From Candidatus Binatia bacterium (GTDB lineage Bacteria; Desulfobacterota; Binatia; UBA9968; JAJDTQ01), in the NCBI GenBank assembly GCA_963666515.2, contig OY762897.2:3680001-3744000 (forward strand): DNA of 64,000 bases, in the 5' to 3' direction. A program made the position numbers and the translations under genes. This document shows positions 8,904-44,233 of this stretch, one piece after another. Numbering within the stretch: position 1 is the first letter of the stretch; every line of letters starts with the position of its first letter. The notes below the pieces were generated by a model. The model searched no databases, was not told where the DNA came from, and worked only from the letters and a program-made list of their open reading frames with translations.

Positions 8904-9631
8904 TCAGCCGCGGACGGCGATGATGTACCCTTCGGCGTGGTCTCCGATGACCTCGCAGCGGGACTGGCCCCAGGTGTGGAAATAGAATGCCATGTACGCG
9001 CAAAGCACCGCGTCCAGCCGGTCCTCCAGGGACTTGAGGGCGGAGCCGCGTAGCGCGCGCGGGTCTTCGTGGAGCAGGCGGGACAGCTCCGGCGACGGCA
9101 GCAGGGGAGGGTCCTGGCGGGTCAGGTAGGTCTCGATGGCAGCCTGGAACTCCGACAACCCGGCCTGCCGGACCGAAACCGGGCCTTTCTTGTACTTGAT
9201 GATGCGCGGCCGCTCGAAGAACGCCACTTGCACCAGGTGGGGAAAGATTTCGAGCTGGCGCCGGCCGCTGCGGCCGGGCAGGAACGGGTTCGACGAGAAA
9301 CCCCGGCGCCGGAGCTTGCGGCACAGCCGCACCGGCCGCTCACAGCGGACCCGGTTGGCCGGGTAGGCTCCCGCGTGGTAGCGGCTGAACCGGGCCGAGA
9401 CCATCTTGTCCGCCGGCCGTGACGTCCCGGGCGGGTTCCTGGCGATGATGGCGCGTCGATGCCCAGCCACACGTCGTCTCCGCCACGGGCCTCCACCCAC
9501 TCCACGATCTCATCATCCGTGATCAGCCGGTCCGATCGCACGAGGCGGCAGCCGGCGCCGTCCGACACCAGATGGGCCAGTCCGGTGGGATTGCGGTTGC
9601 CCCAGGCCAGGTCGATGCCGATGAAGTCCAT
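8904..9631 (-). pseudogene. DUF429 family (RNase H-like fold) protein with a 1-nt frameshift
   Basis: The N-half FIGIDLAW..NPTG...GIDAP (ORF 9122..9631) continues in another frame as IIARNPPG.SRPAD...EIFPH...KYKKG...EDRLDAVLCAY (ORF 8904..9500). One base is missing at about 9450 (GCG CC ATC ATC). Confidence 0.85.
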
Positions 9632-13739: not shown

Positions 13740-15086
13740 ATGAAAATCCCACCATCCCCACCGGGCTACGAGGACATCCTGTTGAACCTCAAGGACCCCA
13801 CTCAAGTGAGGCGGATGGCGGAGATCCTTGTAAACGGAGGGGTTGGAGCGGCGCATGGCGGGCAATATCGGCACTGGGAAAGCTTGAGACATCTCCGGCC
13901 TCCGGAAGGACTCTCCTCCGAGGAGTGGTGGGCCGCGGTCAAACTCGCACGCCGCCAACTTCGAAGGACCATCCCACTGGAGGACAAGGACGGACGGCCG
14001 TTCGCCTACACCCTCGCGGACCCAGTACTTGAACTCCTCCACGAAATCCATCGCGACACGAGCAGCAGGATTACGACAAGTGACCAGATAGGCAATCCAC
14101 AAACCAGGGAGAGATTCATCGAGAGTTCCCTGATAGAGGAGGCCATCACTTCGAGCCAGCTTGAAGGGGCGTCCACGACGCGCGAGGCCGCGAAGCAGAT
14201 GATCCGCTCCGGCCGAAGTCCGGTGGATCGAAGCGAGAGGATGATCCTCAACAATTATCGGGCCATCCGCCTCATCAAGAACTTCAAGGACGAACCCTTG
14301 ACCCCGGACATCATCTTCCAGATTCACAGGATGCTTGTTGGTGGCACATTGGACACGGTAGCCGGATCAAACTACCTGAGAAGGCCGGGAGACGGCATTG
14401 CGGTCTATCACGACGCTGACGGGACCTTGCTCCACATCCCGCCGCCCGCGAAGGAAATCAGGCGCCGAATGGCTGCCATGTGCGATTTCGCGAACCGGAG
14501 ACAACCTGACGCCTTCCTGCACCCGATACTCAAGGCCATCATCCTGCATTTCTGGCTTGCCTATGACCATCCGTTTGTCGACGGCAACGGCAGGACCGCG
14601 AGGGCGTTGTTTTACTGGTCGGCGCTCTCAGATGATTTCTGGATGTTCGAGTTTCTCTCGATTTCGAGGATAATTCGGAAAGCCCCGGCCCGGTACGGGC
14701 GGTCGTTCCTCTACACCGAGACCGACGAGAATGACCTGACCTACTTCATTCTGGCGCAACTCCAGGTCATACGACGCGCGATGGATATCCTGTACGCTTA
14801 CCTTGACAAGAAGGCTCTGGAAATCCGCACCATTGAGCAGATCATCCGCTCTTCCGTTTCGATAAACCATCGACAACTCGCCCTCCTGGGACATGCCCTG
14901 CGACACCCTGGCGTGCGCTATACGATCGCGGGCCACAAAAAGACCCATGGCGTCACGTACCAGACCGCCAGGACCGACCTCCTCGAACTTGCCTCCCGGG
15001 AACTGCTTGACAAGACCAAGACGGGGCGTTTCTTCAGCTTCACGGCCCCCAACGACTTGGCGAAGAGGCTTCAGGCATGGTCCTAA
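13740..15086 (+). CDS. Fic family protein with C-terminal HTH
   Basis: Canonical HPFVDGNGRTAR, N-terminal inhibitory SSQLEG motif, C-terminal GVTYQTARTDLLEL wHTH-like segment. Confidence 0.93.
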   Translation: MKIPPSPPGYEDILLNLKDPTQVRRMAEILVNGGVGAAHGGQYRHWESLRHLRPPEGLSSEEWWAAVKLARRQLRRTIPLEDKDGRPFAYTLADPVLELLHEIHRDTSSRITTSDQIGNPQTRERFIESSLIEEAITSSQLEGASTTREAAKQMIRSGRSPVDRSERMILNNYRAIRLIKNFKDEPLTPDIIFQIHRMLVGGTLDTVAGSNYLRRPGDGIAVYHDADGTLLHIPPPAKEIRRRMAAMCDFANRRQPDAFLHPILKAIILHFWLAYDHPFVDGNGRTARALFYWSALSDDFWMFEFLSISRIIRKAPARYGRSFLYTETDENDLTYFILAQLQVIRRAMDILYAYLDKKALEIRTIEQIIRSSVSINHRQLALLGHALRHPGVRYTIAGHKKTHGVTYQTARTDLLELASRELLDKTKTGRFFSFTAPNDLAKRLQAWS

Positions 15087-17130: not shown

Positions 17131-18135
17131 ATGAAGTTCAGCATCCAGCTTCCCACCTGCACCGAGGGCCTCGTGAACCCGGTCCCGTTCGTGGCGCCGG
17201 ACGACTTCATCCGCATGGCGCAGGAAGCCGAGCGGCTCGGCTACGACGCCGTGTGGGGCAACGACCACGTCACCCCGGCGTCCTACGCGCGGCAGAAATG
17301 GCCGGAGCCGCCCAACTTCTACGAGGTGCTGGTGACCCTGGCCGCGGTCGGCGCCCGCACCACCCGCATCCGGCTGGGCACGGCCGTGCTCGTGCTGCCG
17401 CTGCGCGACCCGGTGCTGCTGGCCAAGCAGGTGAGCACCCTGGACCGCTTCACCAACGGCCGGGTCATCCTGGGCACCGGCATCGGCGCCTACCGGGAGG
17501 AGTTCGACGCCCAGTGGCCGCGGCGGAAGGCCGAGCGGCGCGGCGACCTGCTGGACGAGAGCCTGGCGGCGCTGCAATGCCTGTTCCGGGACACGGACGC
17601 CACCTACGAGAGCCGGCACATCGCCTTCCGGCACATCGCCATGCGCCCCAAGCCGCTGCAGGACCCGCTGCCCATCTTCGTGGGCGGACACAACGAGGCC
17701 ATGATCCGGCGCGCGGCCCGGCTCGGCCAGGGGTGGCTGCCGGGCTGGCGGCCCTTCGAGCAGATCGTCGAGCGCGTGGCATTGCTACGCAGGCTGACGG
17801 AGGAAGCCGGACGGGAACCCAGAGCGGTAGAGGCATGCTCCCAGTTCACCCTGTGCATCGGCAAGACCGTGGAGGAGGCGCGGGCCCGCTACCGCAGCAC
17901 CGGCATGGTCCAGCACCGGGTGTCCCTGGCGCACACCGGCCGAGACCCGGCCCTGGCCGAGACCCACAACCTCATCGGCAGCCCGGCCAGCATCCTGGAG
18001 CAGGTGGCGTTCCTGGACAAGGCCGGCATCGACCACATCTGCGCCTTGCAGTTCCCCTCGGACACGGGCGCGGAGATGCTGGAGCAGATCCAGTGGCTGG
18101 CCGAGGAGGTCATGAAGCCGTTCAACGGAGGTTGA
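17131..18135 (+). CDS. LLM class (luciferase-like) flavin/F420-dependent oxidoreductase
   Basis: AERLGYDAVWGNDH, TTRIRLGTAVLVLPLRDPVLLAKQVSTLD...GRVILG.GIG, PKPLQ.PLPIFVGG. Confidence 0.92.
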   Translation: MKFSIQLPTCTEGLVNPVPFVAPDDFIRMAQEAERLGYDAVWGNDHVTPASYARQKWPEPPNFYEVLVTLAAVGARTTRIRLGTAVLVLPLRDPVLLAKQVSTLDRFTNGRVILGTGIGAYREEFDAQWPRRKAERRGDLLDESLAALQCLFRDTDATYESRHIAFRHIAMRPKPLQDPLPIFVGGHNEAMIRRAARLGQGWLPGWRPFEQIVERVALLRRLTEEAGREPRAVEACSQFTLCIGKTVEEARARYRSTGMVQHRVSLAHTGRDPALAETHNLIGSPASILEQVAFLDKAGIDHICALQFPSDTGAEMLEQIQWLAEEVMKPFNGG

Positions 18136-18305: not shown

Positions 18306-19790
18306 TTGGCCACGGCCCACCACGATGTCAAGACGCTCGGTGCGTACTTCACGCCGGAGGTAGTGGCGGATGCCTTGGTGCGATGGGCCGTTCGCGACCC
18401 CGGCGACCTCCTGCTCGATCCATCGAGCGGCGATGGCCGCTTCGTTGCGCGTCATCCGAACAGCGTCGGCATCGAACGGGATCCGGCGTCGGTCGCACAA
18501 GCGTCCGTGCGGGCTCCGAATGCGACACTCGTAAACAGCGATTTCTTCACGTGGGTGTCTGACGACCACCGCCAGTTCGACTGCGCAGCCGGTAATCCTC
18601 CCTTCATTCGGTATCAGCGGTTCAGCGGCCCGACCCGGCAGGCCGCACTCGACTACTGCCGCCGCCTGGGCGTCATCTTCAGCGGCTTGTCGTCATCATG
18701 GGCGCCGTTCATCGTGGCGGCGGCCAGCAAGCTCCGCGCAGGCGGTCGGATCGCTTTCGTCGTACCGGCGGAGATCGGTCATGCGCCCTACGCCACGCCG
18801 CTCATGGACTACCTTCTGGCCAACTTCGGTTCCGTGCACGTGGTCGCCATCAGAGAAAAGATCTTTCCACGGCTCTCGGAGGACTGTTGGCTGCTGTTCG
18901 CAGACAGAGCCGGTTGTCAGGCGGACGGTATCCGTTTGTCGAAGCTCGAACGATTCGACCCCAGTGGCATACCGCCAGCGGTGTCGGAACTGATATCGGT
19001 CGAGGAGTGGCGTGTCGGATGGGGTGGCAGGCTGCGGCCGTTCCTGTTGCCGGCGCGCATCCGGAGCCTCTATCAGCGCATTACGACCGACTCCGGGACC
19101 GTCCGGCTCGGTCGAATCGCGCAGATCGGTATCGGATACGTGAGCGGCGCGAACCACTTCTTTCATCTGCGCCCTTCCGACGTGGAGCGCTTCCGGATAC
19201 CCGACAAATTCCTCGTGCCGTCGATCAGGAACAGCCGATACGTCACCGGCACCGAGATTAACGACGCTGACATCGAGCGGTGGACCGCGAAAAACGAGCC
19301 CGTGTTCCTTTTGCGAATCCCACCCCGCACACAGGTGCCCGCTACGGTCCAGGCGTATCTCGACACCGAGGAAGGGCATCGTGCCAGAGGCTCCTACAAG
19401 TGCCGCAACCGCAAACCATGGTACACCGTTCCCGACGTTCGGCGTCCTGCGTTTGTGCTCACATACATGAGCGGCAGATCCCCGACGCTCGTCGCGAATC
19501 GGAGCAGATGCACCTGCACGAATGCACTCTTGGCAGTCGATCTCCGGCCCGAACTGTTCAACGGTGGTAGCGACTTCTGCGGCCAACGACTGTCAGCAGC
19601 GTGGGGTTCACCCGTCGGGCGGCTGAGTTGCGAGATCGAAGGACATCCACTGGGGGGCGGGATGCTCAAGCTCGAGCCGGGAGAAGCGCGTAATGTGCTC
19701 CTGGCTCCGGACGCGGTGATCCAACAGCCTGATGCCGCGCTGCTCGACGAAGGTATCGAAATGATGCGCCAATGGAGGCACGTCGCGTGA
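18306..19790 (+). CDS. N6-adenine DNA methyltransferase (gamma class), type II R-M
   Basis: GAYFTP, motif I LLDPSSGDGRF, motif IV GNPPFIRY, C-terminal target-recognition region. TTG start. Confidence 0.9.
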   Translation: MATAHHDVKTLGAYFTPEVVADALVRWAVRDPGDLLLDPSSGDGRFVARHPNSVGIERDPASVAQASVRAPNATLVNSDFFTWVSDDHRQFDCAAGNPPFIRYQRFSGPTRQAALDYCRRLGVIFSGLSSSWAPFIVAAASKLRAGGRIAFVVPAEIGHAPYATPLMDYLLANFGSVHVVAIREKIFPRLSEDCWLLFADRAGCQADGIRLSKLERFDPSGIPPAVSELISVEEWRVGWGGRLRPFLLPARIRSLYQRITTDSGTVRLGRIAQIGIGYVSGANHFFHLRPSDVERFRIPDKFLVPSIRNSRYVTGTEINDADIERWTAKNEPVFLLRIPPRTQVPATVQAYLDTEEGHRARGSYKCRNRKPWYTVPDVRRPAFVLTYMSGRSPTLVANRSRCTCTNALLAVDLRPELFNGGSDFCGQRLSAAWGSPVGRLSCEIEGHPLGGGMLKLEPGEARNVLLAPDAVIQQPDAALLDEGIEMMRQWRHVA

Positions 19791-20680
19791 GTGCCTGCGA
19801 GTGGATATCGCTCAGGTCGGCCCTTGCCCACTTCGTCACGTTCCGCGGGGCGCCACAGAGCCAACGACACATCAAGCCGCTTCATTGGTACGTCGCCTGC
19901 AGGCTCGTCGTAGAAGGTGGATTCCACCCAGACGAGATCATGCCACGCCCGCCGTTCCGGGTGGACGAGAGCCGCAGACAGCCGGTGTTGATCCATGATC
20001 CGAGCCTCGGCGGTGCCGGTGAACGGACTGTCTACGGCGGTCTCAAGACCAAGGACGTAGACGTTGTCGTGACCAAGGAGGGGATCGGGCCGGTGCTCGC
20101 GGTCTCCTGCAAAGGGGCAATCGGTGCGTTCCGGAATCTCACGAATCGGATGGAAGAAGCGGTCGGCGACTGCACCAATCTTCACATCGCCTATCCGCCG
20201 CTCGTGTGCGGTTACTTGTTCATCATGCGGGCAAACCGCGCTGAGGAAATCGGGTTGGTCCGCCAACCGGAGTCATCGCAGCAGCCCGTTCGGCCGGTCG
20301 CGGAGAACGATGTGGCCCTTGACGAACGCGGCCAGCCAGTCGCGGCAGTTCGACGATTCCATGCGGCGCTTCGCGAATTGGCCGACAGACGCGGCATTCG
20401 AGACGACGTGAGCCGTTACGAAGCGATCTCACTCGCGCTCGCTTCGACCCGGCCGGAGGAGGTCGGAGAGATCGTCAACGAGTTCCCCGATCCAGGCAGT
20501 GCGCTACGGTTCGAACGGTTCTTCGAGACGGTATACCGACAATACGACGAACGATTCGTCTACGCCGCTCCCGACCTCAGGAAGGTGACGGCTCGCAAGG
20601 AGTGGGCGAAGGCGTCCGAAGCCTTCAGTACAACAACGCTGACCGACATGGACTACGAACCGAGAAGCCGCGAGTCTTGA
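19787..20680 (+). CDS. Type II restriction endonuclease, PaeR7I/XhoI-like PD-(D/E)xK fold
   Basis: GTGA overlap with the MTase stop and GGAGG RBS. KDVDVVV...LAVSCK...FRNLTNRMEEAVG recalls the XhoI/PaeR7I NNR.EEA.G motif. Confidence 0.75.
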   Translation: MSACEWISLRSALAHFVTFRGAPQSQRHIKPLHWYVACRLVVEGGFHPDEIMPRPPFRVDESRRQPVLIHDPSLGGAGERTVYGGLKTKDVDVVVTKEGIGPVLAVSCKGAIGAFRNLTNRMEEAVGDCTNLHIAYPPLVCGYLFIMRANRAEEIGLVRQPESSQQPVRPVAENDVALDERGQPVAAVRRFHAALRELADRRGIRDDVSRYEAISLALASTRPEEVGEIVNEFPDPGSALRFERFFETVYRQYDERFVYAAPDLRKVTARKEWAKASEAFSTTTLTDMDYEPRSRES

Positions 20681-20714: not shown

Positions 20715-21758
20715 ATGCCCGACATCCAGTTCGACCTCGGCTTCAGTTCGCGAACCGTCGCCGCCTACCCGCTGGCCCGGCGGGTGGCCATCATCAAGAG
20801 CGCGGAGGCGCTCGGCTTCGACCGCCTGTGGCATTCCAACGAAAAGTTCGGCCGCGACATGGTGGCCAACATGACCCTGAGCGCCGCCCACACTGAACGC
20901 ATCGGCATCGGCGCCGCGGTCACCGACCCCTACAGCGTCCACCCCTCCCTTACTGCCGCGGCCATGGCCACGGTGGACGACATCTCCTCCGGCCGCGTCA
21001 TCGTCGGCATCGGCGCCGGCGGCTCCGGCTTTCCCGCCATGGGCATCCAGCGGGAGCATCCGGTGGCGGCCACAGGGGACGCCATCGCCATCATGCGCGG
21101 CATGTGGGCCGGCAAGCCCGCGACCGTGGACGGAAAAGTCGTGAGCGTCCGGAGCGGGGTCCTGGGGTTCAAGGCCCGCGCCGACATCCGCATCGTGATC
21201 GCCACCCGCGGACCCGCGATGTTCCGCTTGGCCGGCCGAGTCGCCGACGGCGCCATGATCGCCACCATGGCTACCCCCGAGGGCGTCGGCATAGCCTGGG
21301 ATTTCGTGCGGCAAGGCGCGCAACAGGCCGGCCGCGACCCGGAAGATATCGAGATCATCTCGCGCGTCGACACCTGCGTGGACCGGGACCGCGATAAAGC
21401 CCGCGCCGGGGTCAAGCAGATGATCGCCTTCCTGTTGTGGAGCAGCTACCCCAACCGCGACTTCGTCACGCAGTTGGGCATGGAGGTTCCGGCCGAGTTG
21501 GAAGCCATAATCGCCAAGCGCGACTACGAACTAATGTTCGAGGCCGGCCCCCTCGTCCCCGAGGAGTTCGTCGACGCCTTCGCCTGGGCCGGCACCCCCG
21601 AGGAAGTCGCCGCCAAAATCACCCGCATCGCCGAAATGGGCATCCGCCGCTTCGGCACCTGGGTGCTCGCACCGCCGGGAGGGGGGATCGAGTCGGTGAT
21701 TCAGCTCATCGCCGAGGAGGTGATGCCGCGGGTGCGGGGAGGCGGGGACGGTGGATGA
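20715..21758 (+). CDS. LLM class oxidoreductase (Mer-like)
   Basis: AEALGFDRLW, TERIGIGAAVTDPYSVHPSLTAAAMATVDDISSGRVIVGIGAG, ATRGPAMFRLAGRVADG. Confidence 0.9.
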   Translation: MPDIQFDLGFSSRTVAAYPLARRVAIIKSAEALGFDRLWHSNEKFGRDMVANMTLSAAHTERIGIGAAVTDPYSVHPSLTAAAMATVDDISSGRVIVGIGAGGSGFPAMGIQREHPVAATGDAIAIMRGMWAGKPATVDGKVVSVRSGVLGFKARADIRIVIATRGPAMFRLAGRVADGAMIATMATPEGVGIAWDFVRQGAQQAGRDPEDIEIISRVDTCVDRDRDKARAGVKQMIAFLLWSSYPNRDFVTQLGMEVPAELEAIIAKRDYELMFEAGPLVPEEFVDAFAWAGTPEEVAAKITRIAEMGIRRFGTWVLAPPGGGIESVIQLIAEEVMPRVRGGGDGG

Positions 21759-21899
21759 AACGTTTGCTCACACCGACTACCGCCAACCTGTCGATATAGT
21801 GGAACATTGTCCATGCCTCGCATGGGCCGAACCTATATTGCGGACGCAACCGTATTGTGGAAACTCGCGGCAAGCCACCTCACTTCTATAGGATCAGGA

Positions 21900-24540
21900 A
21901 TGGTTCCACTCAATTCACCAGAACTCGACCGTCTCGCAAAATTCCTGGCGAAATACAACTTCCGATCTTCCGTCACGCAACTTGCTGGCCTTCTTACGGT
22001 ACCATCACTGCAGGCCAACACAATCCGCATAGAAACCGCCGTTCATCTAGCCGTCGCACATTGCCAAGGGCGCAACAAACCGGGGAAAACGGAGATTGGC
22101 CACTGGTTGAACCGGGAACTTGGCAATACAACGATTGCTCTTCTTGAGGATCCTGCCAACGACGTCTTCGTCACCAATATCGAAACGCCCAACGGCAATC
22201 GCCGTATCTTCGAAGGGATCTGGGAAACCAATGACTACTTCCTCCAGACTGTTCTCGACCTCCTATTGGGAGTCTCCCCGCAAAATGAACTCCAGAGTCT
22301 CATCAATCCCGTATTTGCTCTGCTAAGGCTAAGCGACTGCGTCGCCGAACGGGTCGGACTACAAAGATGGCACGCTGAACACTCCGATCCGAAAACCAAG
22401 ATCGATGTACCTGCTGCAAATGGAATGGCGGAACGAGCTCGCGCAGTAACGTTCTCAGACAACGACCTTGCCTCCTTGGAAATCGACCGTAATCTCTTAG
22501 AACCGTTTATTCTAAAAAGCCACGAAAGACAGATACTCACTACCGAAACGATCGGCAACACATCCCTCGAAAGACGTCCTCTTGTCGACTGTCGTGGCAC
22601 TCTAGTTCTAGCTTTGCCACACGCAGTTAGCCCTGCGATCCGCAGATACGTACTGTCTGAGCTCTTGCGCAAAGATCACCTGCCAAGTTTCGCTCGCGCT
22701 TTGGAAGACTTCCAAGCCCGACAAATTATGATGGAAGGCTTTCAAGAATTGAATACGGACATCGGGCCCCTGGACATCCCCGCGCCGTCTGACGAGAGAC
22801 CGAGACTTACAGACTGGTTATATAAGTATGACACCGACAAATACCTTCACGTAGTCTTGCTCCATGACCGGTTGGACCTGCTGGAGAAGGAAGGCCTGAC
22901 CAGTTTCATGCGATATCCACCACGACGAAGCAGGGCGTTTGACAACCATCTTCATGGGGTTGCCAACTATTGTGCTTCGTTGCCGGATTTTGGCGAAGGT
23001 ACCACACTACTGATATTGGGTGGGCTCGGCCGCGGCTTCGGCCTAAATTTCACAAAATTGCCAAATCGGTGGCATTCTTCTGTTATTCGGATATCGGACT
23101 TCCTCAACCTGGCCAAAACTCCCGATCTTCCGGTGACACACTATCTTAAGTTTCTTCGCCAGAAAGACCACCTGAAGGACGCGGGCGTCCGCTTTATGGA
23201 CGTCGAGGGTGACTTCAACCTCTACGGCTACTGGCATCAATCGGACTATCAGCTATTGCCCGTCGATCTCCCATTGGGTCCAGAGGCTTTAGTTGCCATA
23301 TGGCCTGACTTTGTTTTGTCGTCCCGACAAAAAGCTCGAAGACTTGTTGACGAGCATGTCACTCAAGATACAGAAGGCCACCACTTGCCCGTCAGGCGCT
23401 TTTTCCGCGAGGAGTTTTTCCGATCCCTAGAGGATCGGCCCATTTATGTGAGTATGCCCCATCTACAGGCCGGTGTACTTGCCGGCGTGGTGGAAACAAA
23501 GCACGGTCCATGTTGGTTGTCCGTGGGGGGATCTAGACTTCATAAGGGCGGTAGTCCTTTTGTTTTCAAGATGTGGCGCGGCTTCCTTGAACTATATGAC
23601 AGGCTCGCGGGCCAGCTTGAATCAAGCGGTCTGCCGATGACAACAGGCCCGCTAGAGATCCAACTCAACCTCTCCAACGTGCAAATGCCGGACAGCGACA
23701 GCAGCTCACAAGCCAACGCGACCAGCGAACCCCAGATCGTTGTCGACATCAACCGACGAACGGCGGTGATTGAGTTTTCGCCGAGTATGCTCCAGTCATT
23801 TCAACAACCGGAGAACTTCGGAGAACGATTCGTCCTCAGAAGCATCGCCCAGGCCCTCGTGAGACTCCGTAACGTGGTGGATATGGGTTGTGAAGTCAAG
23901 TTTGTGGAAATGCTCATAGACAACGTACTTGAAAAACCTGATATTCGAGTTCTTCACCTGTTGCCCGTGCATGACTCTGTTGACGGTTTACAACAGAGCA
24001 ATAGTCCACAGGCCATATTTGTAGCTCCCGAGGACCACGCTTTCGCTACCCTCGGGTTGTCCGAAGGCTGCATACCAACTCCGAATTCCACCGCAATCAC
24101 CGAAAAATCTGACTGCAACCGCTTCCTTCGCTCTGTCGTTGACAAAGTCTGGAGAGAAATACGTGACCGCCTGCGACAATTGGACCGTACATCTGTCATT
24201 TGTAAGTTGCTAAACGTGCATGAAGCTATTGGGCACGACAGAGACCATTGGAAGCGTACGGCACGGGCTCTAATTGCACTCTATGCGACCGGGGACGACG
24301 TTTTCGCCGTCGCGCGCGATCGTGAAGCAAAACGGGCCGTTGTCGGACTATCGTCGCGTACACTCCTGGAGATGGCCGTCTGTGAGTGTCCCGAAGTCGA
24401 TGGCCGTAATCTTTCACGCTGGGAACTTGACGATCTCCTGGCCAATACGACGTTAATGCTCGAAGCTGCCACGGGTTCGGACGCTATTGCCTATGACCTA
24501 GTCGAACCTCAAATACACTTACATTCAAATGGTCAATACA
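21900..24540 (+). pseudogene. 5' part of a large (1229 aa restored) nuclease-domain protein, interrupted by an IS1380-family element
   Basis: Long open frame from ATG 21900 (MVPLNSPE) to ..HSNGQY at the IS boundary. The last 26 residues of the track ORF are read-through into the IS. Confidence 0.85.
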
Positions 24541-26205
24541 CCCGTCAGTTGCAAAACGCCCTCTTGAAGAGCCCGCTCAGGCCGTCCTACAAAGGCTCTC
24601 CGGTGTCATACGGCAAATAGCTCAGGCTCACCATCTGTGAAGCTAAGCCACAGCCGCCCGTGAGATAAAATCGAGGGGGGTTGTTGCGACATTTTTTCGA
24701 ACAAAACGAGGTGAGCTCAAGGATGTGGTCTCCGAAACTGATATAATCATCGTTGGTATCATCCCAATACCCGATGAAACGGAGACCACGAAATGAAACT
24801 TAGCAGAACCGCGGTTCGAGGTAAAGCCACGCTGGGCATGGAGGTTCGATTCGAGCCGCAGAAACTGACATCGTATTCGGGGCTCATCCTCTTTCAGTGC
24901 TTCTTTTCCCACCTGGGTCTCAAGGAGCGGCTGGGGCGGTGCTTCCGCCACCTGAAAGCCAATCCGATCTACGGTCACCACGTCGTGTTGCTGCTGCTGG
25001 TGGTGCATCTCATCATCGGACACCGACAGTTGCAAGACTTGGCGTACTACCGGGATGATGAACTGGTCCGGCGGTTGCTTGGGCTGAAACGCTTGCCGGA
25101 CGTGTCTACCGTGAGCCGCTCGCTGAAGAGTGCCGACGCGTGCAGCGTCGACAACGTCCGCGCCGAGTCGAGAACGGTGGTCATCGAGCGCCTGGTGGCC
25201 GAAGGTTTCGCGACTATCACCCTGGACTTCGACGGCTCGGTCTTGAGCACCGGGCGCCACGCCGAGGGCACCGCGGTGGGGTTCAACAAGAAGAAGAAAG
25301 GGGCGCGCAGCTACTACCCCCTGTTTTGCACCGTGGCCCAGACCGACCAGGTGCTCGACGTGCACCATCGGCCGGGAAACGTCCATGACTCCAAGGGCGC
25401 CGATGCCTTCATCCAGGGCTGTGTGTGCACCGTGCGCGCAAGCCTGCCCCGGGCCAGGATCGAGGTGCGCATGGACAGCGCCTTCTTCAGCAGGGATATC
25501 GTCGACCGGCTTCACTCCCTGGGTGTCACCTTCACCGTCTCGGTGCCCTTCGAGCGCTTGGCCGAACTGAAGGGGATGATCGAAGGCAGACAACGATGGC
25601 GGCCCATGGCCAATGGACTCGGCTACTTCGAGACCCGCTGGAAGCCCAAGTCCTGGAACACCCGCTATCGCTTCGTCTTCATCAGAAAACCCGTCCGATA
25701 CCAGGACAAGGAGGAAATCCAACTCGACCTCTTCAAGCCGGTCTCCCATGGGTACGAGTTCAAGGTCATCGTCACCAACAAGAGAATCCGCCCACGCAAC
25801 GTGGCGCTCTTCCACGAAGGACGGGGATCCCAAGAGGGTATCTTCGCCGAGTTGAAGTCCCACTGCCAAATGGGCTACGTGCCCGTCAAAACACGCGTCG
25901 GGAACCAGTTGTACATGTTCGCCAGCATCCTCGCTCACAACCTCACCCGCGAACTCCAGATGCGAATCCACCCCCGTGAGCGTTCCACCACAGCCAAGCG
26001 CCCCGCCCTGTGGTGCTTCCGCGAAATCGGAACCCTGCGCCGTACCCTCATTCAACGAGCCGGACGTATCATTCGCCCCGCCGGCAAGCTCATCCTGTCG
26101 ATGAATACCAATCCGAATCTCGAAGCAGAACTGCGTCACGCCCTCGCAGCCCTCACGCCCCGCGCCTGACTCTTAAATTCAGCCGTGGTTTTTGCAACAA
26201 TCGAG
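24541..26205 (+). mobile_element. IS1380-family insertion sequence (1664-1665 bp)
   Basis: Left end CCCGTCAGTTGCAAAA; right end reverse-complements to CTCGATTGTTGCAAAA. Flanking direct repeat TACA(C) at 24537 and 26206. Single transposase ORF. Confidence 0.9.
24793..26169 (+). CDS. IS1380-family DDE transposase
   Basis: LTSYSGL, ITLDFDGSV, SYYPL, HRPGNVH, VRMDSAFF, HEGRGSQEGIFAELK, TLRRTLIQRAGRI. 458 aa, intact. Confidence 0.93.
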   Translation: MKLSRTAVRGKATLGMEVRFEPQKLTSYSGLILFQCFFSHLGLKERLGRCFRHLKANPIYGHHVVLLLLVVHLIIGHRQLQDLAYYRDDELVRRLLGLKRLPDVSTVSRSLKSADACSVDNVRAESRTVVIERLVAEGFATITLDFDGSVLSTGRHAEGTAVGFNKKKKGARSYYPLFCTVAQTDQVLDVHHRPGNVHDSKGADAFIQGCVCTVRASLPRARIEVRMDSAFFSRDIVDRLHSLGVTFTVSVPFERLAELKGMIEGRQRWRPMANGLGYFETRWKPKSWNTRYRFVFIRKPVRYQDKEEIQLDLFKPVSHGYEFKVIVTNKRIRPRNVALFHEGRGSQEGIFAELKSHCQMGYVPVKTRVGNQLYMFASILAHNLTRELQMRIHPRERSTTAKRPALWCFREIGTLRRTLIQRAGRIIRPAGKLILSMNTNPNLEAELRHALAALTPRA

Positions 26206-27258
26206 TACACAATGGACAGAAATTTCTACAAGGCAGTCATGAGTCCGTTTTTGGCAGCCTATAATCGAGAAGCATTCGAGACTGCAGCCCAAGACTACAA
26301 CAAGCTGTATCGGAGCGAAGCCTTCGGCAAACGGACGCCGGTGGAAGAAGTATATTCTATGGAGTTGATTGAAGCGTTTCAGACTGAATACAGTTTGCCG
26401 GTAACCGCGGCCGTGGAGGGGTGTTCAGAACTCCTTGATTTAGCGGTTGAGCGCAACAGCATCGTCGTAGAGACAACGCTGGGTACTATCAAAGATCGGC
26501 TAACTTCGGCCCGCGGTCTATCCCATGAGGCAGTGGAGGCCTTTGTTCGTACCTTCAGCTTGACCCATCGTAGGTCTTGGGAAGAGCCGCCGCCAGGCTT
26601 CGAGCCGAAGGACATCTATCCATGGCGGTTTAGTCGGCGACTCTCGTATGTAACCCGGCCTTTACTTGTGTTCGGGAAACAAAACACGGATAAGGTGCTG
26701 TTCGCTGTCGGAGCACTGCGCGTCGGAATCGCCTACTTACTGGACAAGATTGAACAAGGCCATTTTTCGCAGGACTTCTTCAAATCAAAACACATGCGAC
26801 GATATATCGGGAAGGTCAACAACCAGAAGGGTCATGCCTTTGCGCAAGCAGTTTCGGCAGAAATGAGAAAGACCGGATGGTCTACGCGGGTTGAGGTGCA
26901 GATGACGGAACTAGGTGGTCCAGCTCAACTTGGCGATCTGGACGTCCTGGCCTGGAAGGCAAACGGAGAGATTCAGGTCATCGAATGCAAGCGCTTACAG
27001 TTTGCTCGAACGATTGGAGAAGCCGCCAGTGTCTGTAAACGCTTCCGTGGCGAGGCCAAGGATGAGTTGGCCAAGCACGTACGGCGCACCGACTGGATCA
27101 GGGGTAACCCCGCGAGCCTTCGCCATGTAGTCGGTTTCATACCAGATGCTGGCGGCATTGATCACCGCCTCGTAACCAACGTACCTGTTCCCATGACCTA
27201 CTTGACGTCACTACCTATCCAGGCGGACAAAATTGGTCCATTGAAATCCGACCTGTAG
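26206..27258 (+). pseudogene. 3' part of the IS-interrupted protein, with a PD-(D/E)xK (NERD/REase-like) nuclease domain
   Basis: Resumes as YTMDRNFYK in frame with the 5' part. Contains KGHAF...GDLDVLAW...IQVIECK...LAKHVRRTDW. Confidence 0.85.
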
Positions 27259-27410
27259 AAGTCTGGTCGCTCAGCCATGTGCGATGAAACATAATTTGGT
27301 GCTGCGGTAAACCGCCAACGCAAATGGACTTGGGCAAACCCCAAGCCGATCGTTCCGCGGCAACAGATCGGGGTCCGATTCTCCCCCTTAATTGGGGATT
27401 CAGGCCTGAA

Positions 27411-27821
27411 CTAAACCGGCAGGGTACTTACCTGGACGCGATGAGCCGCGCGGATGAGATCCTTGTCCAGCGTCGCCAAGGGCAACCGCCGGCGCACGGC
27501 GAGCTCGAGATAGGCCGCGTCGTAGGTGGTCAGGCCTTCATTTCGGGCAAGCGTCAGTATTTCCCGGAACGCCCGGCTTTCGGTTTCCGTGTCGGTAACG
27601 ATGGGAGAACGGTCCAGCAGGTCAAGGTAGTCTGCGATCTGTGCAGCGGTTATGCGGTTGAGTCGTTCCGCCCTTGCCAGTACATTGCCAAGCTCCAAAC
27701 GCCAGAGCGCGGGAACCAGCGCTCCCGAGTCTTTCAGGCGGTCCAGCAATTCGTCTGTCTGCGGCGTGAACTCGTCCTCGAAGAGCCAGGCGACGGTAAT
27801 GGAACAGTCCAGCACGAACAT
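27411..27821 (-). CDS. vapC: VapC/PIN-domain toxin
   Basis: FVLDCS, VPALWRLELGN, LTTYDAAYLELA, LATLDKDL. Confidence 0.93.
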   Translation of the reverse strand: MFVLDCSITVAWLFEDEFTPQTDELLDRLKDSGALVPALWRLELGNVLARAERLNRITAAQIADYLDLLDRSPIVTDTETESRAFREILTLARNEGLTTYDAAYLELAVRRRLPLATLDKDLIRAAHRVQVSTLPV

Positions 27822-27824
27822 CGG

Positions 27825-28064
27825 TTACCGCCGCCCTTCATCGCGCAGCTTCTTCCAGTCCAGGCCTCCGAGCTTCAGACCGGACCGGAGGCTGCGAATG
27901 CCTTCGATCACGCGTTCCGTCGCTATCCGTTGCGCTTCCCCGGCGGCTACGAGGCGAGCTACGGGCACACCGCGCCGGGTGATGAGCACTTCCTCTCCCT
28001 GGGTGACCTTGTCGAGCAGCGACGACAAACGCGTCTTCGCCTCGAACGCGCCGACTTCGATCAT
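27825..28064 (-). CDS. Phd/YefM family antitoxin
   Basis: VGAFEAKTRLSSLLDKV..GEEVLITRRGVPVARLV. ATG at 28064, directly upstream of the PIN toxin. Confidence 0.92.
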   Translation of the reverse strand: MIEVGAFEAKTRLSSLLDKVTQGEEVLITRRGVPVARLVAAGEAQRIATERVIEGIRSLRSGLKLGGLDWKKLRDEGRR

Positions 28065-28077
28065 GCGTCCTACTCCA

Positions 28078-28125
28078 ATCAACTAGTTGATCAGACCAGT
28101 ATAGTCCACGACGGCGATTACGCAA
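28078..28125 (-). promoter_or_regulatory. Promoter and palindromic operator of the phd-vapC operon
   Basis: Minus strand TTGCGT (28125-28120), 16 nt, TATACT (28103-28098), then perfect 14-bp palindrome ATCAACTAGTTGAT (28078-28091). Confidence 0.7.
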
Positions 28126-28225
28126 CCTCGTGGTTGCGTCTCAAGCCATCCGCCCCCGCGCCCGAAGGAAACACCGAAAGGACCCTTCAGGTAGTTGATC
28201 AACCACTGCTTTCCATGAACTCCGT

Positions 28226-28858
28226 TCAGCAGAAATTCTGTGTGAAATATACCTCGCCGTCCTTCGCAACGGCGACGCCGATGCCTGTCCTGTCGTAAGA
28301 TGCGTTCTGGATATTTTTGCGGTGTTCCTTGCGTTCCATCCAGACCTTCACTGCTTCCTGAGCCAGTCCTTCCGGAGTAAACCAGTCACGCGACACGATC
28401 CTGCCGTTGACCGCTCTATACCTGCCGAACAGCGGCACTGCGGCAAGGTTTTCGCCGAGGCCGTAGGTGTAGTAGGAGCCGTAATCCTTGCGGCAGTCAT
28501 ATCCTCCCTTCTGCGCTCTGTCCGTGGCGTTGCGGCCTTCGGGACTGTTGTGACCGAAGTAGTTCCGGGCCGCCATGTCTTCGCTGTGTGAGCGGGCAAT
28601 CAGCCTGATCTCGTCAATGTGTTCCAATGGTTGCAAACCACGCTTGACGCGTTCGGCATTGACCAATTCGTGTGTCCTTTTTTCCAGTCGGCGCGTGTCT
28701 ATGGAAGGTCTTGCAGTGGTGGTCAGCGGCGGGGTTGCAACTGCGAAGGGTGAACCGGATCGAGGGGATTGGGCCGTCTCCGGCGCGCTCCCACAGCCGA
28801 CGACAAGAACCGTTGCGAGCACCCGGAGAGGCCCATTCAGGTAAACCTGCCTTCTCAT
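28226..28858 (-). CDS. CAP (SCP/PR-1) domain lipoprotein
   Basis: Lipobox-like VVGC, LVNAER..RGLQPL, ARSHSEDMA..NYFGH, GENL, W....HRKNI, TGIGV, YFTQNF. Confidence 0.9.
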   Translation of the reverse strand: MRRQVYLNGPLRVLATVLVVGCGSAPETAQSPRSGSPFAVATPPLTTTARPSIDTRRLEKRTHELVNAERVKRGLQPLEHIDEIRLIARSHSEDMAARNYFGHNSPEGRNATDRAQKGGYDCRKDYGSYYTYGLGENLAAVPLFGRYRAVNGRIVSRDWFTPEGLAQEAVKVWMERKEHRKNIQNASYDRTGIGVAVAKDGEVYFTQNFC

Positions 28859-29946
28859 AGCCCCCGCAACGCCGAAAGGACCATCTCGACCAGAATCCGC
28901 GGCGGCCGGGTCAGGGGGTCGGTGACCGGGATGCCGAGTTTGTCCTGGTAGCGCGCGATGGCGGCGCTGACGTCGGCGTCAGACATGTTCTCGTGGTTGA
29001 TCGTGAGGCCGATGACCTTCGTGTCGGAGAAGGTCTGGATGAGATGGATCTCGTCTGCCGGCTCCGGCATCGCCATGTGCTCGAAGTCGGCACGATGGGG
29101 TCGTGCGGGGGCGTGCTGCAGCACGACGCCGTCGGGGCAGCAGCCGCGGAGGATCAAGGCCGAGGTCGGGTAGGCGGGGTGGCTGAGCGCGCCTTGCCCT
29201 TCGACGATGATCACGTCGGGTTTCTCGGCTTCGAACGCTTCGATGATGGCCGCTTCAAGCTCACCGGCGCAGAACTGTGAAGGAACGGCGTCGAGGGCGA
29301 CCCCGTAGCGGGCTCCCTGGATCAGGCCGGTCTGGCCCGTGCCGATCATGACCGCCTTGATGCCGCGGTCATTGAGCGCCCGGGTGAGGACGGTTGCGGT
29401 GGTCCGCTTGCCGACGGAGCAATCGGTGCCGAGGACGGCGACGCGCAGGCAGGTGACCTCCGCGATACGGCCGCTGAAGGTTCGCAGGCTCTCCTTGGCC
29501 GGGGGCTTTCGGACGTCGATGATCTTTACGTCCCGTGCGACGCTTGCGGCCAAGAACTCCGGGTCTTCGCTCAAGAACTCGTGAAGCCCGTTCACGATGT
29601 TCATTCCCAGGTCGATGGCCTCCAGCAGAATCCTCCGGTCGCGGGACGACAACATGCCGCTCGCGGGAGCCATGCCGAAAATGAAGTAGTCGGGCGTGGC
29701 GCCGGCGCGCGCCAGCGCATCCGCCAGGTCGCGGCAGACGGGAATTCCGTTCGGCGGCTCACCGAGCACCGCGCCGGCGTCGAGCCCGGCCTTCTCGCTG
29801 TCGATGACCGAAAGGATTTCGTATCGCTCGGAGTGACGGACGAGGCCGTTTGCGGTCTTCCCGTCAATGGCGCCGAAGTTCGCCTCGCAGTACACGATGG
29901 CCGTCGCGATTCCTGCCGGGGATTTTGCGATCCTATGAACGGCCAA
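28855..29946 (-). CDS. DUF1611 family protein (DgcN-like P-loop protein)
   Basis: GKTANGLVRH, IVNGLHEFL, GTDCSVGKRTT, GTGQTG, VEGQGALSHPAY. Confidence 0.9.
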   Translation of the reverse strand: MAVHRIAKSPAGIATAIVYCEANFGAIDGKTANGLVRHSERYEILSVIDSEKAGLDAGAVLGEPPNGIPVCRDLADALARAGATPDYFIFGMAPASGMLSSRDRRILLEAIDLGMNIVNGLHEFLSEDPEFLAASVARDVKIIDVRKPPAKESLRTFSGRIAEVTCLRVAVLGTDCSVGKRTTATVLTRALNDRGIKAVMIGTGQTGLIQGARYGVALDAVPSQFCAGELEAAIIEAFEAEKPDVIIVEGQGALSHPAYPTSALILRGCCPDGVVLQHAPARPHRADFEHMAMPEPADEIHLIQTFSDTKVIGLTINHENMSDADVSAAIARYQDKLGIPVTDPLTRPPRILVEMVLSALRGL

Positions 29947-29987
29947 TGGGATAATGTTCCCTTTCCGTTTGATTTCAATACTCAGCG

Positions 29988-30296
29988 CTATCCCTGTTTC
30001 GACGGGGCAGGTTCAAACTCGACCCGTACGCGGTAGCCCAGCACTCGTGCATATTCTTCCACGGTGACAAGCCGCGGGGAAACCTCACTGTTCACGCTTT
30101 CGAGCCTCGATATATTGCTCTTTTTGGTCCCTAGAAGTTCGGCCATTTGCTTTTGGGTTTTGCCTGCGGCCGTACGTATGGCGATCATGTTCCGCTTCAT
30201 GGCAAAAGCTGGGGCGGCTTCATCGTAGGCGGCCTTTACGGCAGTGTTTTTCAGTGCCTTGCGCTTAAAATCCCTGAATGTGGGTCGGTCAGCCAT
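29988..30296 (-). CDS. XRE-family HTH antitoxin (HigA-like)
   Basis: RTAAGKTQKQMAELLGTKKSNISRLE HTH. Overlaps the toxin stop. Confidence 0.9.
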   Translation of the reverse strand: MADRPTFRDFKRKALKNTAVKAAYDEAAPAFAMKRNMIAIRTAAGKTQKQMAELLGTKKSNISRLESVNSEVSPRLVTVEEYARVLGYRVRVEFEPAPSKQG

Positions 30297-30618
30297 TTTC
30301 CGTTACCTCCTCCATACGCTTGCGCGCCAAGGCCAAGTGCTTTTTCGGAATCTTCTGCGTTTTCTTGATGAATGTGTGCAGGATCACAAGTTCCTGCCCC
30401 TTGTGTGTACAAAACAGCGACCGGCTGATCCCTTCGGGGCCTTTGGCCCTGATTTCAAACAAGCCTTCACCTAACGGCGCGGTGTGAGGGCGGCCGATTG
30501 AAGGGCCGAACTCTTCCACCAGTTCGATGATGTGCAGCAGATTTGCCAATATTCCAGCGGGCAGCTCCAATGTCTGGTTCTCGACCTTCTCACTATAAAA
30601 TGTAACCCTCCACGCCAT
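30289..30618 (-). CDS. RelE/ParE (HigB/Gp49-like) toxin
   Basis: GRPHTAPLGEGLFEIRAK, LHTFIKKTQKIP...LARKR. Toxin-first gene order. Confidence 0.92.
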   Translation of the reverse strand: MAWRVTFYSEKVENQTLELPAGILANLLHIIELVEEFGPSIGRPHTAPLGEGLFEIRAKGPEGISRSLFCTHKGQELVILHTFIKKTQKIPKKHLALARKRMEEVTENG

Positions 30619-30624
30619 TCAACG

Positions 30625-30654
30625 AAGTTATCAGAAACGATAACCGCTTGGCAA
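30625..30654 (-). promoter_or_regulatory. Promoter/operator of the higBA-like operon (probably leaderless mRNA)
   Basis: Minus strand TTGCCA, 18 nt, TAACTT, then 6 nt to ATG. Inverted repeat GTTATC-N6-GATAAC (30627-30644) lies inside the promoter. Confidence 0.6.
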
Positions 30655-30691
30655 GCTTCTACCCGCTGAGCTGCTCGGTCGCAGGGACACG

Positions 30692-32593
30692 CTATGCCGC
30701 GGCCACCATCCGCCCCCGCGCCCGCATCCACTCCCACCCCGTCAGGGCCAGGCCCACCACCAGGCCGACGACGTTCCACTGGAGCCACGGGGTGACCATG
30801 CCCAAGCTGGCGGCAAGGAAGAGAAGGCGGGTGATGGGGTCGAGGTTCCTGAAGCAGTAGCCCTGCACGGCCATGCCCATGGCGATCATGCTCAACACCG
30901 CGAAGACGATGGTCACGGTGACCTCCACGGCGCCTCCGATGGTGATGAGCGCGGAGTTGGCCACGAACGCGTAGGGGAGCACGAAGGCGGGCAAGGCCAG
31001 CTTCACGGCTTCGATGGACGTGGGCACCACCGGCGACTGGGCGATGGCCGCGGCGGCGTAGCTCGTGGGCGCGGTGGGCGGGGTGATGGCCGAGATGGCG
31101 CAGAAGAAGATCACGAACAGGTGTGCCTGTGGCACGATGGCGTCGGCGTCGAGGCCCATGTTCCTGAGCATGACCACCAGGGCCGGGATGGCGATGCCCA
31201 CCTGCACGATGTAGGCGGACGACAGCGGCAGGCCCATGCCGAGGATGATGGCGGTGATCATCACGAAGACCAGGGCCAGCAGCAGGTGCCCGCCGGCCAG
31301 GTCCACGATGACGCCGGAAAACTTGATGGCGACGCCGGTGAGGTCGAAAATGCCCACCATGATGCCGGAGGTGATGATGGCCACGGCCACCACGGTGGAC
31401 TGGATGCCGCCCTGCACCAGAGCGTCCCAGATGTCCTTCAAGCCCATGCGCGTGGCCTTGCGGAACCAGCTCACGATCACGATGCCGACGATGCAGCGCA
31501 CCACCGCGTAGCCCGGGCTGAACCCGGCCACCAGGAGATAGATCAGGATAATGAGCGGCAGCGCCAGGTGGCCCCGTTGTATGATGGCATTCTTGAGGCT
31601 CGGCAGCTCCTCCCGCGGCACCGTGGGGATCTTCTCCTTGACCGCGTAGATGTGCACCATGATCCCCACGGCGAGGAAGTACAGCACCGCGGGGACCAGG
31701 ATGTACTGCATCACGTTGACGTAGGGAATGCCGGTGTACTCCGACATGAGGAACCCGGCCGACGCCATCACCGGCGGCATGATCAGACCGCCGGTGGACG
31801 CCGACGCTTCCACCGCGCCGGCCATGTAGTCCCGGAAACCGATCTTCTTCATCATCGGGATGCTGAAGGAGCCGGTGATGACCGCGTTGGCCGTGCTGCT
31901 GCCCGAGATGGAGCCCATGAGGCCGCTGGACACCACCGCGATCTTGGCCGGGCCGCCCCGGAACCGCCCGGCCAGGGCGGTGGCGAACTCGATGGTGAAC
32001 TGGCCGAAGCCCGACTTCTCCAGGAAGGCGCCGAAGACGATGAACAGGAAGATGAAGTTGGCCGAGATGTGGGTCGGCAGACCGAACAGTCCGTCGGTGA
32101 GGAAGTACTGGTTGTCGGCCACCTCCGACGCCGAGTAGCCCAGGTGGTTGAGGAATCCGGGCAGGTAAGGCCCCAGAAAAGCGAAAAGGAAAATGATCAG
32201 GGCCAGCCCCGCCAGCGGCCAGCCCACGGCGCGGCGGCAGGCCTCCAGCGTCAGCGCCACCGCGCCGAAAGCCAGGACGAACTGGAAGAAGGCGAAGTCC
32301 TCGGTGTAGCCGATGTGCTGGATGATCCACTCGTACTCGTAGAAGAGATAGCCCATGGTCACGAGCCACAGGCCGATGACCACGACGTCGTACCAGGGGA
32401 GCTTCCCGTCATCCGGCCGGCGGAACGCCGGGAAGCTCAGGAAGGTGATGAGCATCATCAGCGTGACGTGGAGCACGCGATGCAGGTACGCCTCGGGTTG
32501 CCCGAAGAAGCCGGTGTAGATGTGGTAGGCCGAGGTCGAGAAAGCCACCAGGGTCAGGATGATCCCGGCGGGGCCTGTCAGTTTGCGCTCCAT
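30692..32593 (-). CDS. TRAP transporter fused 4TM/12TM permease (TAXI type)
   Basis: GGPAKIAVVSS..MGSISGSSTAN..TGSFSIPMMK, EASASTGG.IMPPVM, ILGMGLP, SAITPP. Confidence 0.95.
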   Translation of the reverse strand: MERKLTGPAGIILTLVAFSTSAYHIYTGFFGQPEAYLHRVLHVTLMMLITFLSFPAFRRPDDGKLPWYDVVVIGLWLVTMGYLFYEYEWIIQHIGYTEDFAFFQFVLAFGAVALTLEACRRAVGWPLAGLALIIFLFAFLGPYLPGFLNHLGYSASEVADNQYFLTDGLFGLPTHISANFIFLFIVFGAFLEKSGFGQFTIEFATALAGRFRGGPAKIAVVSSGLMGSISGSSTANAVITGSFSIPMMKKIGFRDYMAGAVEASASTGGLIMPPVMASAGFLMSEYTGIPYVNVMQYILVPAVLYFLAVGIMVHIYAVKEKIPTVPREELPSLKNAIIQRGHLALPLIILIYLLVAGFSPGYAVVRCIVGIVIVSWFRKATRMGLKDIWDALVQGGIQSTVVAVAIITSGIMVGIFDLTGVAIKFSGVIVDLAGGHLLLALVFVMITAIILGMGLPLSSAYIVQVGIAIPALVVMLRNMGLDADAIVPQAHLFVIFFCAISAITPPTAPTSYAAAAIAQSPVVPTSIEAVKLALPAFVLPYAFVANSALITIGGAVEVTVTIVFAVLSMIAMGMAVQGYCFRNLDPITRLLFLAASLGMVTPWLQWNVVGLVVGLALTGWEWMRARGRMVAAA

Positions 32594-44158: not shown

Positions 44159-44233
<75 letters not shown>

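Follow-up and report, generated by a model that had tools for sequence, protein, structure and literature searches.

What gene was interrupted when an insertion sequence (IS) entered positions 21900 to 27258 of this stretch of Candidatus Binatia bacterium DNA, and was that gene a new kind of phage defense? The stretch (hereafter the window) covers 64,000 nucleotides, positions 3,680,001 to 3,744,000 of contig OY762897.2 in assembly GCA_963666515.2. A preliminary description, made from the sequence alone, had joined the two open reading frames (ORFs) flanking the IS into one protein of 1229 amino acids (aa), and proposed it as an undescribed single-gene defense system. The reconstruction holds; the novelty does not. 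We are highly confident that the locus is an IS-disrupted homolog of Upx, and hardly less confident of the fuller statement: that it is a pseudogene of this known single-protein anti-phage system, inactivated by an IS1380-family element that entered at TACA within codons 880-881. Upx is already known: it is named, it has models in PADLOC and NCBIfam, and it has a cryo-electron microscopy (cryo-EM) structure and a proposed trigger.

An insertion sequence within one gene

The broken gene, the element and its target site are arranged along the window as follows.

21900-24540, + strand: 5' part of the Upx-family gene, codons 1-880 and the first base of codon 881; a sensor region corresponding to the N-terminal domain (NTD), the middle domain (MD) and the start of the C-terminal domain (CTD) of Salmonella Upx
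24537-24540, no strand: TACA target-site duplication, left copy
24541-26205, + strand: IS1380-family insertion sequence, 1,665 bp, 59.2% G+C
24541-24556 and 26190-26205: terminal inverted repeats of the IS, imperfect
24793-26169, + strand: transposase gene, 458 aa, the sole ORF within the IS and in the same orientation as the interrupted gene
26206-26209, no strand: TACA target-site duplication, right copy
26210-27258, + strand: 3' part of the Upx-family gene, from the second base of codon 881 through codon 1229 to the stop; the PD-(D/E)xK core lies here

If 24541-26209 is excised, that is, the IS together with one copy of TACA, codon 881 is restored as A|CA (Thr) and the frame runs through 880 + 1 + 348 = 1,229 codons, with no further stop or frameshift in either part. 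As the DNA stands, the frame from 21900 reads 26 IS codons past 24540 and stops at 24620; taken as an ORF, the uninterrupted open frame upstream of the IS is 21807-24620. The 3' frame is open from within the right IS end to 27258, and a possible GTG start there gives an ORF of 26185-27258, 357 aa.

The join proposed in the preliminary description is confirmed by an intact ortholog, P0003, of 1,258 aa, encoded on a 104.7-kb contig. It is identical at 893 of 909 positions to the 5' part and at 348 of 348 to the 3' part, and its protein is continuous over the insertion point: IHLHSNGQYTMDRNFYK, including HSNGQYTMDRNFYK. The uninterrupted DNA form of the site would read CAATACACAATGG, with one TACA. 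The annotated N-terminus of P0003 lies 29 codons upstream of 21900; the Met encoded at 21900 is invariant in a 45-sequence alignment (A1), and 21900 is therefore the likely start. When 21813-27258 is compared with P0003, all 16 amino-acid differences fall within residues 1-888, and the final 370 are free of them; were the 16 spread evenly, the chance of finding none in the 348-aa 3' part would be ~0.006. Recombination, or quicker divergence of the sensor region, might explain why they are confined to the 5' portion.

The element itself is readily assigned. Its transposase scores above the cut-off of the NCBIfam model for IS1380 family transposases (NF033539: 4.5e-71, 239.6 bits, cut-off 180) and matches Pfam DDE_Tnp_1_4 (1.7e-41). 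The terminal repeats are too short and imperfect for the repeat-finding program; they were detected by direct comparison of the ends, in which 12 of the 16 outermost positions match as inverted repeats, and by pattern search. The 9-base core GTTGCAAAA occurs just twice in the 64-kb window, in inverted orientation, each time 8 bases inside an IS end; by chance 0.22 matches would be expected. At the left junction GGTCAATACA is followed by the IS start, CCCGTCAGTTGCAAAA; at the right junction the IS end, TTTTGCAACAATCGAG, is followed by TACACAATGGAC. A target duplication of 4-5 bp is typical of the IS1380 family. The element resembles other members in its single ORF, its length of 1.67 kb, its short and imperfect inverted repeats at the ends, its 4-bp duplication and a transposase above the family cut-off. 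No near-identical copy was found: the 64-kb window holds no second one, and a search of a plasmid collection with the IS DNA (distant mode) returned zero matches.

Because the duplication is perfect, no second lesion has accumulated and the 3' part is identical to that of the intact ortholog, the insertion looks recent, and probably is. The earlier picture of a foreign-looking gene, cleanly and probably recently knocked out, is upheld.

Relatives of the gene are mostly intact and of the expected size. With the 880-aa 5' part as query, a word-based search of a protein collection scored 8,000 candidates, 288 of which passed E ≤ 1e-10; nearly all of the best 120, those listed, are ~1,220-1,260 aa long. 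A scan of species-representative genomes with alignment A1 as query found 68 loci in many phyla, the best at 55% identity; the source genome and the P0003 contig are not among them. The same scan run with P0003 alone gave 30 pattern matches and no relatives. The gene is a single uninterrupted ORF of about 1,210-1,430 aa at 52 of the 68 loci, extending from query residue 65 or earlier to 1200 or later. Eight loci are truncated at contig ends (L002, L012, L013, L014, L018, L019, L020 and L040), at four, frame breaks divide the gene into ORFs that adjoin or overlap (L028, L029, L047 and L058), and four are internal N-terminal remnants (L034, L052, L053 and L060). A stable two-gene form was found at none of the 68. 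The intact homologs of ~1200-1300 aa that the preliminary description wished to see sought have been found, and its refuting case, homologs in two separate genes, does not hold at these loci.

Descent from Upx and its likely mode of action

Both halves match Upx in each of three collections. With the Upx model of PADLOC-DB v2 (2023), PDLC02221, the 5' part aligns at 6.4e-116 over profile positions 41-903 of 1271 and the 3' part at 2.1e-54 over 910-1252. NCBIfam NF042954, ‘anti-phage protein Upx’, matches the 5' part over 22-887 of 1240 (434.6 bits) and the 3' part over 894-1223 (202.1 bits). The sole sequence match in the PDB at E ≤ 0.01 is, for each half, 9wuf_A, the cryo-EM structure of Salmonella Upx (1,272 aa): residues 47-900 align with the 5' part (4.4e-67) and 914-1216 with the 3' part (1.2e-39). 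On every reference the 5' and 3' matches abut, which is independent proof that the two parts are one gene. P0003 matches NF042954 in one stretch, 22-1223 of 1240 (2.4e-195, 651.1 bits).

Structural comparison gives the same answer. The 3' part was modeled with AlphaFold2 from 45 aligned sequences, at a mean pLDDT (predicted local distance difference test) of 78.3 and a pTM (predicted template modeling score) of 0.69. When the model was searched against the PDB with Foldseek, the only hit at E ≤ 0.001 was again 9wuf (E 9e-17, TM 0.62, 314 columns, 28% identity). The next matches are weak (4e-3 to 0.3) and restriction-endonuclease-like: the R2 endonuclease domain, AF1548, XisH, NucS and Hjc. Structure prediction followed by Foldseek, suggested earlier as a check on novelty, leads for the 3' part to a known Upx.

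The clade is, moreover, already catalogued as Upx, since two of its members stand in a published table. Supplementary file 6 of Evans et al. (PMC13601566) lists QUL99295.1 from Candidatus Fermentithermobacillus carboniphilus (1,227 aa) and MDD2685855.1 from Gallionella sp. By their first 120 residues these are P0025 and P0108 of the protein search, which share 51% and 47% identity, respectively, with the 5' part across its whole length. The family is large. Among 1.84 billion cluster representatives covered by a full HMMER search, 1,563 are related at E ≤ 1e-3; tightening the threshold to E ≤ 1e-10 leaves 1,108, and to E ≤ 1e-30 leaves 584. The local copy of Pfam-A has no family for either half, in keeping with the earlier remark that the N-terminal region carries no recognizable motif. 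Family PF28173.1 is precomputed for all of the best 120 of the 288 relatives; it seems to be newer than the local Pfam-A library, or missing from it.

Published work on Upx supplies most of what can be said of mechanism. Evans et al. (PMC13601566) credit the system to Gao et al. 2020. They describe homologs from Salmonella, Hydrobacter and a Pyrinomonadaceae bacterium, with identities down to 16%, all of which are activated by diverse large terminases; the ATPase domain of the terminase is enough to activate Upx. The substitution E1176A in the ExK motif removes both defense and toxicity, and in their AlphaFold 3 models the N-terminal sensor holds the terminase ATPase in unfolded form (PMC13601566). 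Zhou et al. (PMC13099982) describe a monomeric cryo-EM structure divided into NTD (1-515), MD (516-714) and CTD (715-1272), the CTD having a canonical PD-(D/E)xK core with D1161, E1176 and K1178; Upx is described as monomeric in a preprint as well (10.1101/2025.07.10.664194). They report Mg-dependent 3'-5' exonuclease activity on single-stranded DNA and loss of protection when Salmonella Upx lacks either NTD or CTD (PMC13099982). They further suggest that the NTD harbors a minimal nuclease site of its own (D122, D127, R129, E147 and D173), which the phage protein gp16 unlocks; the double mutant D127A/R129A of Salmonella Upx loses defense (PMC13099982).

The catalytic residues of the CTD are present in the 3' part:

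26935-26991, + strand: nuclease active-site motif GDxD...ExK, with D at 26941-43, E at 26983-85 and K at 26989-91

The motif, GDLDVLAW-x9-ECK, had been recognized in the preliminary description as the mark of a C-terminal PD-(D/E)xK nuclease. In the 9wuf_A alignment its D, E and K correspond to D1161, E1176 and K1178 of Salmonella Upx. The triad is intact here and invariant in 52 of 52 full-length genomic homologs and in 121 of 121 representatives (the 150 listed, minus 29 shorter than 1,150 aa).

By analogy with the characterized proteins, an intact copy would work as follows. The N-terminal and middle regions would act as sensor and regulator, holding the enzyme silent until a phage protein is bound; for that trigger the large terminase, through its ATPase domain, is the best-supported candidate. 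Binding would release or activate the C-terminal PD-(D/E)xK effector, presumably a Mg-dependent nuclease, and degradation of nucleic acid would halt the infection. That this clade works by terminase sensing coupled to a C-terminal nuclease we judge somewhat more likely than not. The earlier proposal of a large sensor-like region fused to a nuclease, acting as a single-gene anti-phage system, describes Upx correctly.

The closest characterized comparison is Upx of Salmonella enterica NCTC6026 (SeUpx, 9wuf). Both are single polypeptides of ~1,230-1,270 aa, collinear over nearly their full length, with the same D...ExK triad; neither has a detected NTPase domain, and each is encoded by a stand-alone gene. 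They differ in sequence (28% identity in the C half; N-terminal D122, D127 and E147 are E, N and D here) and in setting: the window copy is broken by an IS in a high-GC host, whereas SeUpx comes from an enterobacterium. The homologs from Hydrobacter penzbergensis (HpUpx) and the Pyrinomonadaceae bacterium (PbUpx) keep terminase-triggered toxicity at 16% identity, and appear in the same homolog table as the window clade (PMC13601566); they are likened to the window protein by published description only, and the passages concerned report no tested member of the window clade. A resemblance in outline extends to Avs2, an antiviral STAND NTPase in which a large sensor binds the large terminase and a fused effector is switched on. 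Upx differs from it in having no STAND NTPase and, according to the abstract of the same paper, no sequence or structural homology to Avs (PMC13601566). The Avs models of PADLOC found no match among the 51 window ORFs scanned.

Here the IS parts residues 1-880 from 882-1229, so that the nuclease core is no longer joined to the sensor. As truncated forms of Salmonella Upx gave no protection in the experiments described by Zhou et al. (PMC13099982), the window copy is most likely dead. A consensus scan of 21500-27500 gave 2 promoter matches against 3.2 in shuffled sequence and 7 terminator matches against 7.0, that is, no excess of either.

The competing readings

Several observations tell against reading the locus as a dead copy of a functioning kind of Upx, or narrow what the reading can claim. 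The equivalog cut-off of NF042954, 1900 bits, is reached neither by the halves (434.6 and 202.1) nor by P0003 (651.1); the protein is therefore a distant homolog of the tested Salmonella protein, with a predicted function. A full-text literature search for Upx and phage turned up no phage assay on this clade. The two papers on Upx conflict: Zhou et al. describe activation by gp16 and direct immunity (PMC13099982), whereas Evans et al. describe activation by terminase and toxicity resembling cell death (PMC13601566). The empty site is evidenced at the protein level only, by P0003. The neighborhood is a loose mosaic of accessory and high-GC housekeeping-like genes, not a dense defense island. 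Finally, two of the residues proposed for the N-terminal nuclease site are replaced: the window protein has Asn at the D127 position and Glu at the D122 position.

This last point bears on the most serious competitor: that the protein is Upx by descent, while its clade works differently, through another trigger or in a non-defense role, and has an N-terminal region without a second nuclease. The segment in question is the following:

22146-22205, + strand: conserved N-terminal segment EDPxxDVF...GNRR, carrying the positions equivalent to D122, D127 and R129

At the positions of SeUpx D122, D127, R129, E147 and D173, the window protein has E, N, R, D and D, so that R129 and D173 are kept. Asn is also the rule elsewhere at the D127 position: it is found in 47 of 52 genomic homologs (Asp in 2) and in 94 of 121 representatives (Asp in 13). 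At the D122 position, Asp occurs in 1 of the 52 and 1 of the 121. The EDPxxDVF segment as such is near-invariant, its leading E being present in all 121 representatives. With D127 as Asn and D122 as Glu, one of the published mechanisms cannot be carried over here without some change. Judged from residue conservation, the DxR motif of the second nuclease seems peculiar to the Salmonella branch and not shared by the whole family; at the D127 site, either Asn may substitute, or in most members the position may do something other than catalysis.

A distinct mode of action for the clade would fit these counts, the identity of only ~28% between the C halves of the window protein and Salmonella Upx, and the statement of Evans et al. 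(PMC13601566) that activators other than terminases are left open. Yet the three homologs they describe, spanning identities down to 16%, all respond to terminase (PMC13601566), the nuclease triad of the clade is invariant, and architecture and length are conserved. We regard such a departure as unlikely. Since the D127 position is mostly Asn, a model of a sensor with one nuclease is favored for the clade, by conservation inference only. A broader proposal is offered tentatively: that the clade, like most of the family, might be a single-nuclease sensor-effector whose conserved N-terminal segment serves trigger capture and not catalysis, and that the clean IS knock-out might be one case of frequent loss of a costly sensor. 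The family-wide residue counts bear modestly on the dispute between the two 2026 Upx papers.

Reading the locus as a broken Upx also presumes that the IS is really there. IS copies are classic sites of misassembly, and an intact protein 98% identical is in the databases; the IS might on that account be an assembly artefact or a minority variant, the organism carrying an intact, working Upx. The perfect 4-bp direct duplication and the matched inverted-repeat ends are the signature of true transposition, not of a chimeric join, and we consider this reading very improbable.

The idea of a previously undescribed system fares worse. It could appeal to the lack of a local Pfam-A match, to the score below the NCBIfam cut-off, and to the names carried by relatives at source: among the best 120 of the 288, 5 are ‘hypothetical protein’ and two JGI records are ‘Holliday junction resolvase’. 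Other relatives are also below 1900 bits (P0004 at 629.2 and P0025 at 637.6); as P0025 is in the published Upx table, the cut-off delimits the close relatives of the Salmonella protein, not the family. The claim of novelty is barely credible in view of the collinear, full-length matches to Upx in PADLOC, NCBIfam and the PDB, the clade members in the published table and the assignment of PF28173.1 to all 120 listed relatives. The preliminary description had itself named a match to a described system as grounds for giving up that claim, and Upx is such a match. Its expectation that ordinary annotation would yield hypothetical proteins was sound: 5 of the listed relatives bear that name, and P0003 scores 651 bits against 1900. 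The locus exposes a practical weakness here: the curated cut-off is tuned to proteins near the Salmonella one, so that general pipelines would leave both pieces, and even the intact ortholog, as hypothetical.

Least tenable of all, and almost certainly wrong, is the notion that a hypothetical protein and a small nuclease are naturally separate genes merely flanking the IS: the sequence as it stands does present two ORFs, 21807-24620 and 26185-27258, but P0003 spans the site, 52 of 68 loci have single ORFs, the pieces at the four split loci abut or overlap like frame breaks and unlike an operon, and removal of the IS with one TACA restores the frame exactly.

Surroundings of the gene and its loss elsewhere

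The gene is poorer in G+C than its surroundings, as first described: 52.1% in the 5' part and 52.9% in the 3' part, compared with 66.7% for the window outside 21800-31000. Third-position G+C is 0.56-0.58 in the Upx gene and 0.64-0.95, mostly above 0.8, in other ORFs picked across the window. From this low G+C we infer that Upx was acquired horizontally. The third-position G+C of the IS is 0.80; its composition is nearer that of the host, which would fit a hit on Upx by a resident IS.

The neighboring genes of note are these:

8904-9500, - strand: DUF429 protein, PADLOC candidate system PDC-S44 (3.6e-48)
13740-15086, + strand: Fic-domain protein, SoFic-like (PADLOC SoFic 2.8e-39; NCBIfam SoFic 52.7 against a cut-off of 550 bits)
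17131-18135, + strand: F420-type LLM oxidoreductase, paralog of the gene at 20715-21758
18306-19790, + strand: type II N6-adenine methyltransferase with Eco57I-like domains (PADLOC MTase_II 3.9e-86)
19772-20680, + strand: 302-aa ORF with a 19-base overlap with the methyltransferase gene; weak restriction-enzyme match in PADLOC (E 4.8e-4), none in Pfam or NCBIfam
20715-21758, + strand: F420-type LLM oxidoreductase, high-GC, directly upstream of Upx, between it and the candidate restriction-modification (R-M) pair
27411-27821, - strand: PIN toxin (2.7e-12), converging on the 3' end of Upx
27825-28082, - strand: Phd/YefM antitoxin (7.8e-12), paired with the PIN toxin
Downstream of Phd/YefM-PIN, - strand: a CAP-domain gene, then a DUF1611/DgcN-like gene
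29988-30296, - strand: helix-turn-helix (HTH) antitoxin, paired with the following toxin
30289-30618, - strand: Gp49/HigB-like toxin

Upx had been placed between an R-M pair and two toxin-antitoxin (TA) modules. The methyltransferase and both TA modules stand; the restriction partner is weak (4.8e-4), and an LLM gene intervenes between it and Upx. The genes at 18306-20680 might form an R-M pair whose endonuclease is unclassified; the methyltransferase gene and the 302-aa ORF each have a third-position G+C of ~0.73. The two LLM paralogs, of host-like composition, bracket the methyltransferase region, and accessory genes here therefore lie between housekeeping-like genes, not in one inserted block. 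Within the window no integrase or island boundary was found, and a tRNA scan gave only tRNA-Gly at 44159-44233, away from the low-GC stretch.

Three ORFs in the TA region were rejected. A 324-aa ORF at 27324-28298 (+ strand) is considered spurious: it overlaps the PIN and Phd/YefM genes of the opposite strand and has no match in Pfam, PADLOC or NCBIfam. Two ORFs resembling a TA pair, 29339-29584 and 29581-30036 (+ strand), also have no matches and lie over the well-supported DUF1611 gene of the opposite strand.

PADLOC scans covered 51 window ORFs (12 and then 39); the 39 further ORFs gave only PDC-S44/DUF429 and incidental domain hits. When 13 window neighbors of Upx were compared by tblastn with the 68 loci, none recurred and there were 4 scattered hits: Upx here is a single-gene system without a conserved partner. 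The Fic gene at 13740-15086 has a lower third-position G+C, 0.73, and a Fic-like gene is also present just upstream of the Upx homolog at locus L007.

The locus is a clean and well-documented case of a defense gene switched off by an insertion sequence. Damage to Upx is seen in other genomes: with the loci cut by contig ends excluded, 8 of 60 are broken, 4 as remnants and 4 by frame breaks, and the frame-broken copies may be sequencing errors where the genomes are metagenome-assembled. The remnants differ in what adjoins them. That at L034 (2-2152) is followed by urease genes, that at L052 (9902-11230) by TetR and efflux genes, and that at L053 (9884-11434) by a LytTR two-component pair; at L060 (4273-5683) just residues 55-171 survive, directly beside an rve-type transposase and downstream of a HipA toxin gene.

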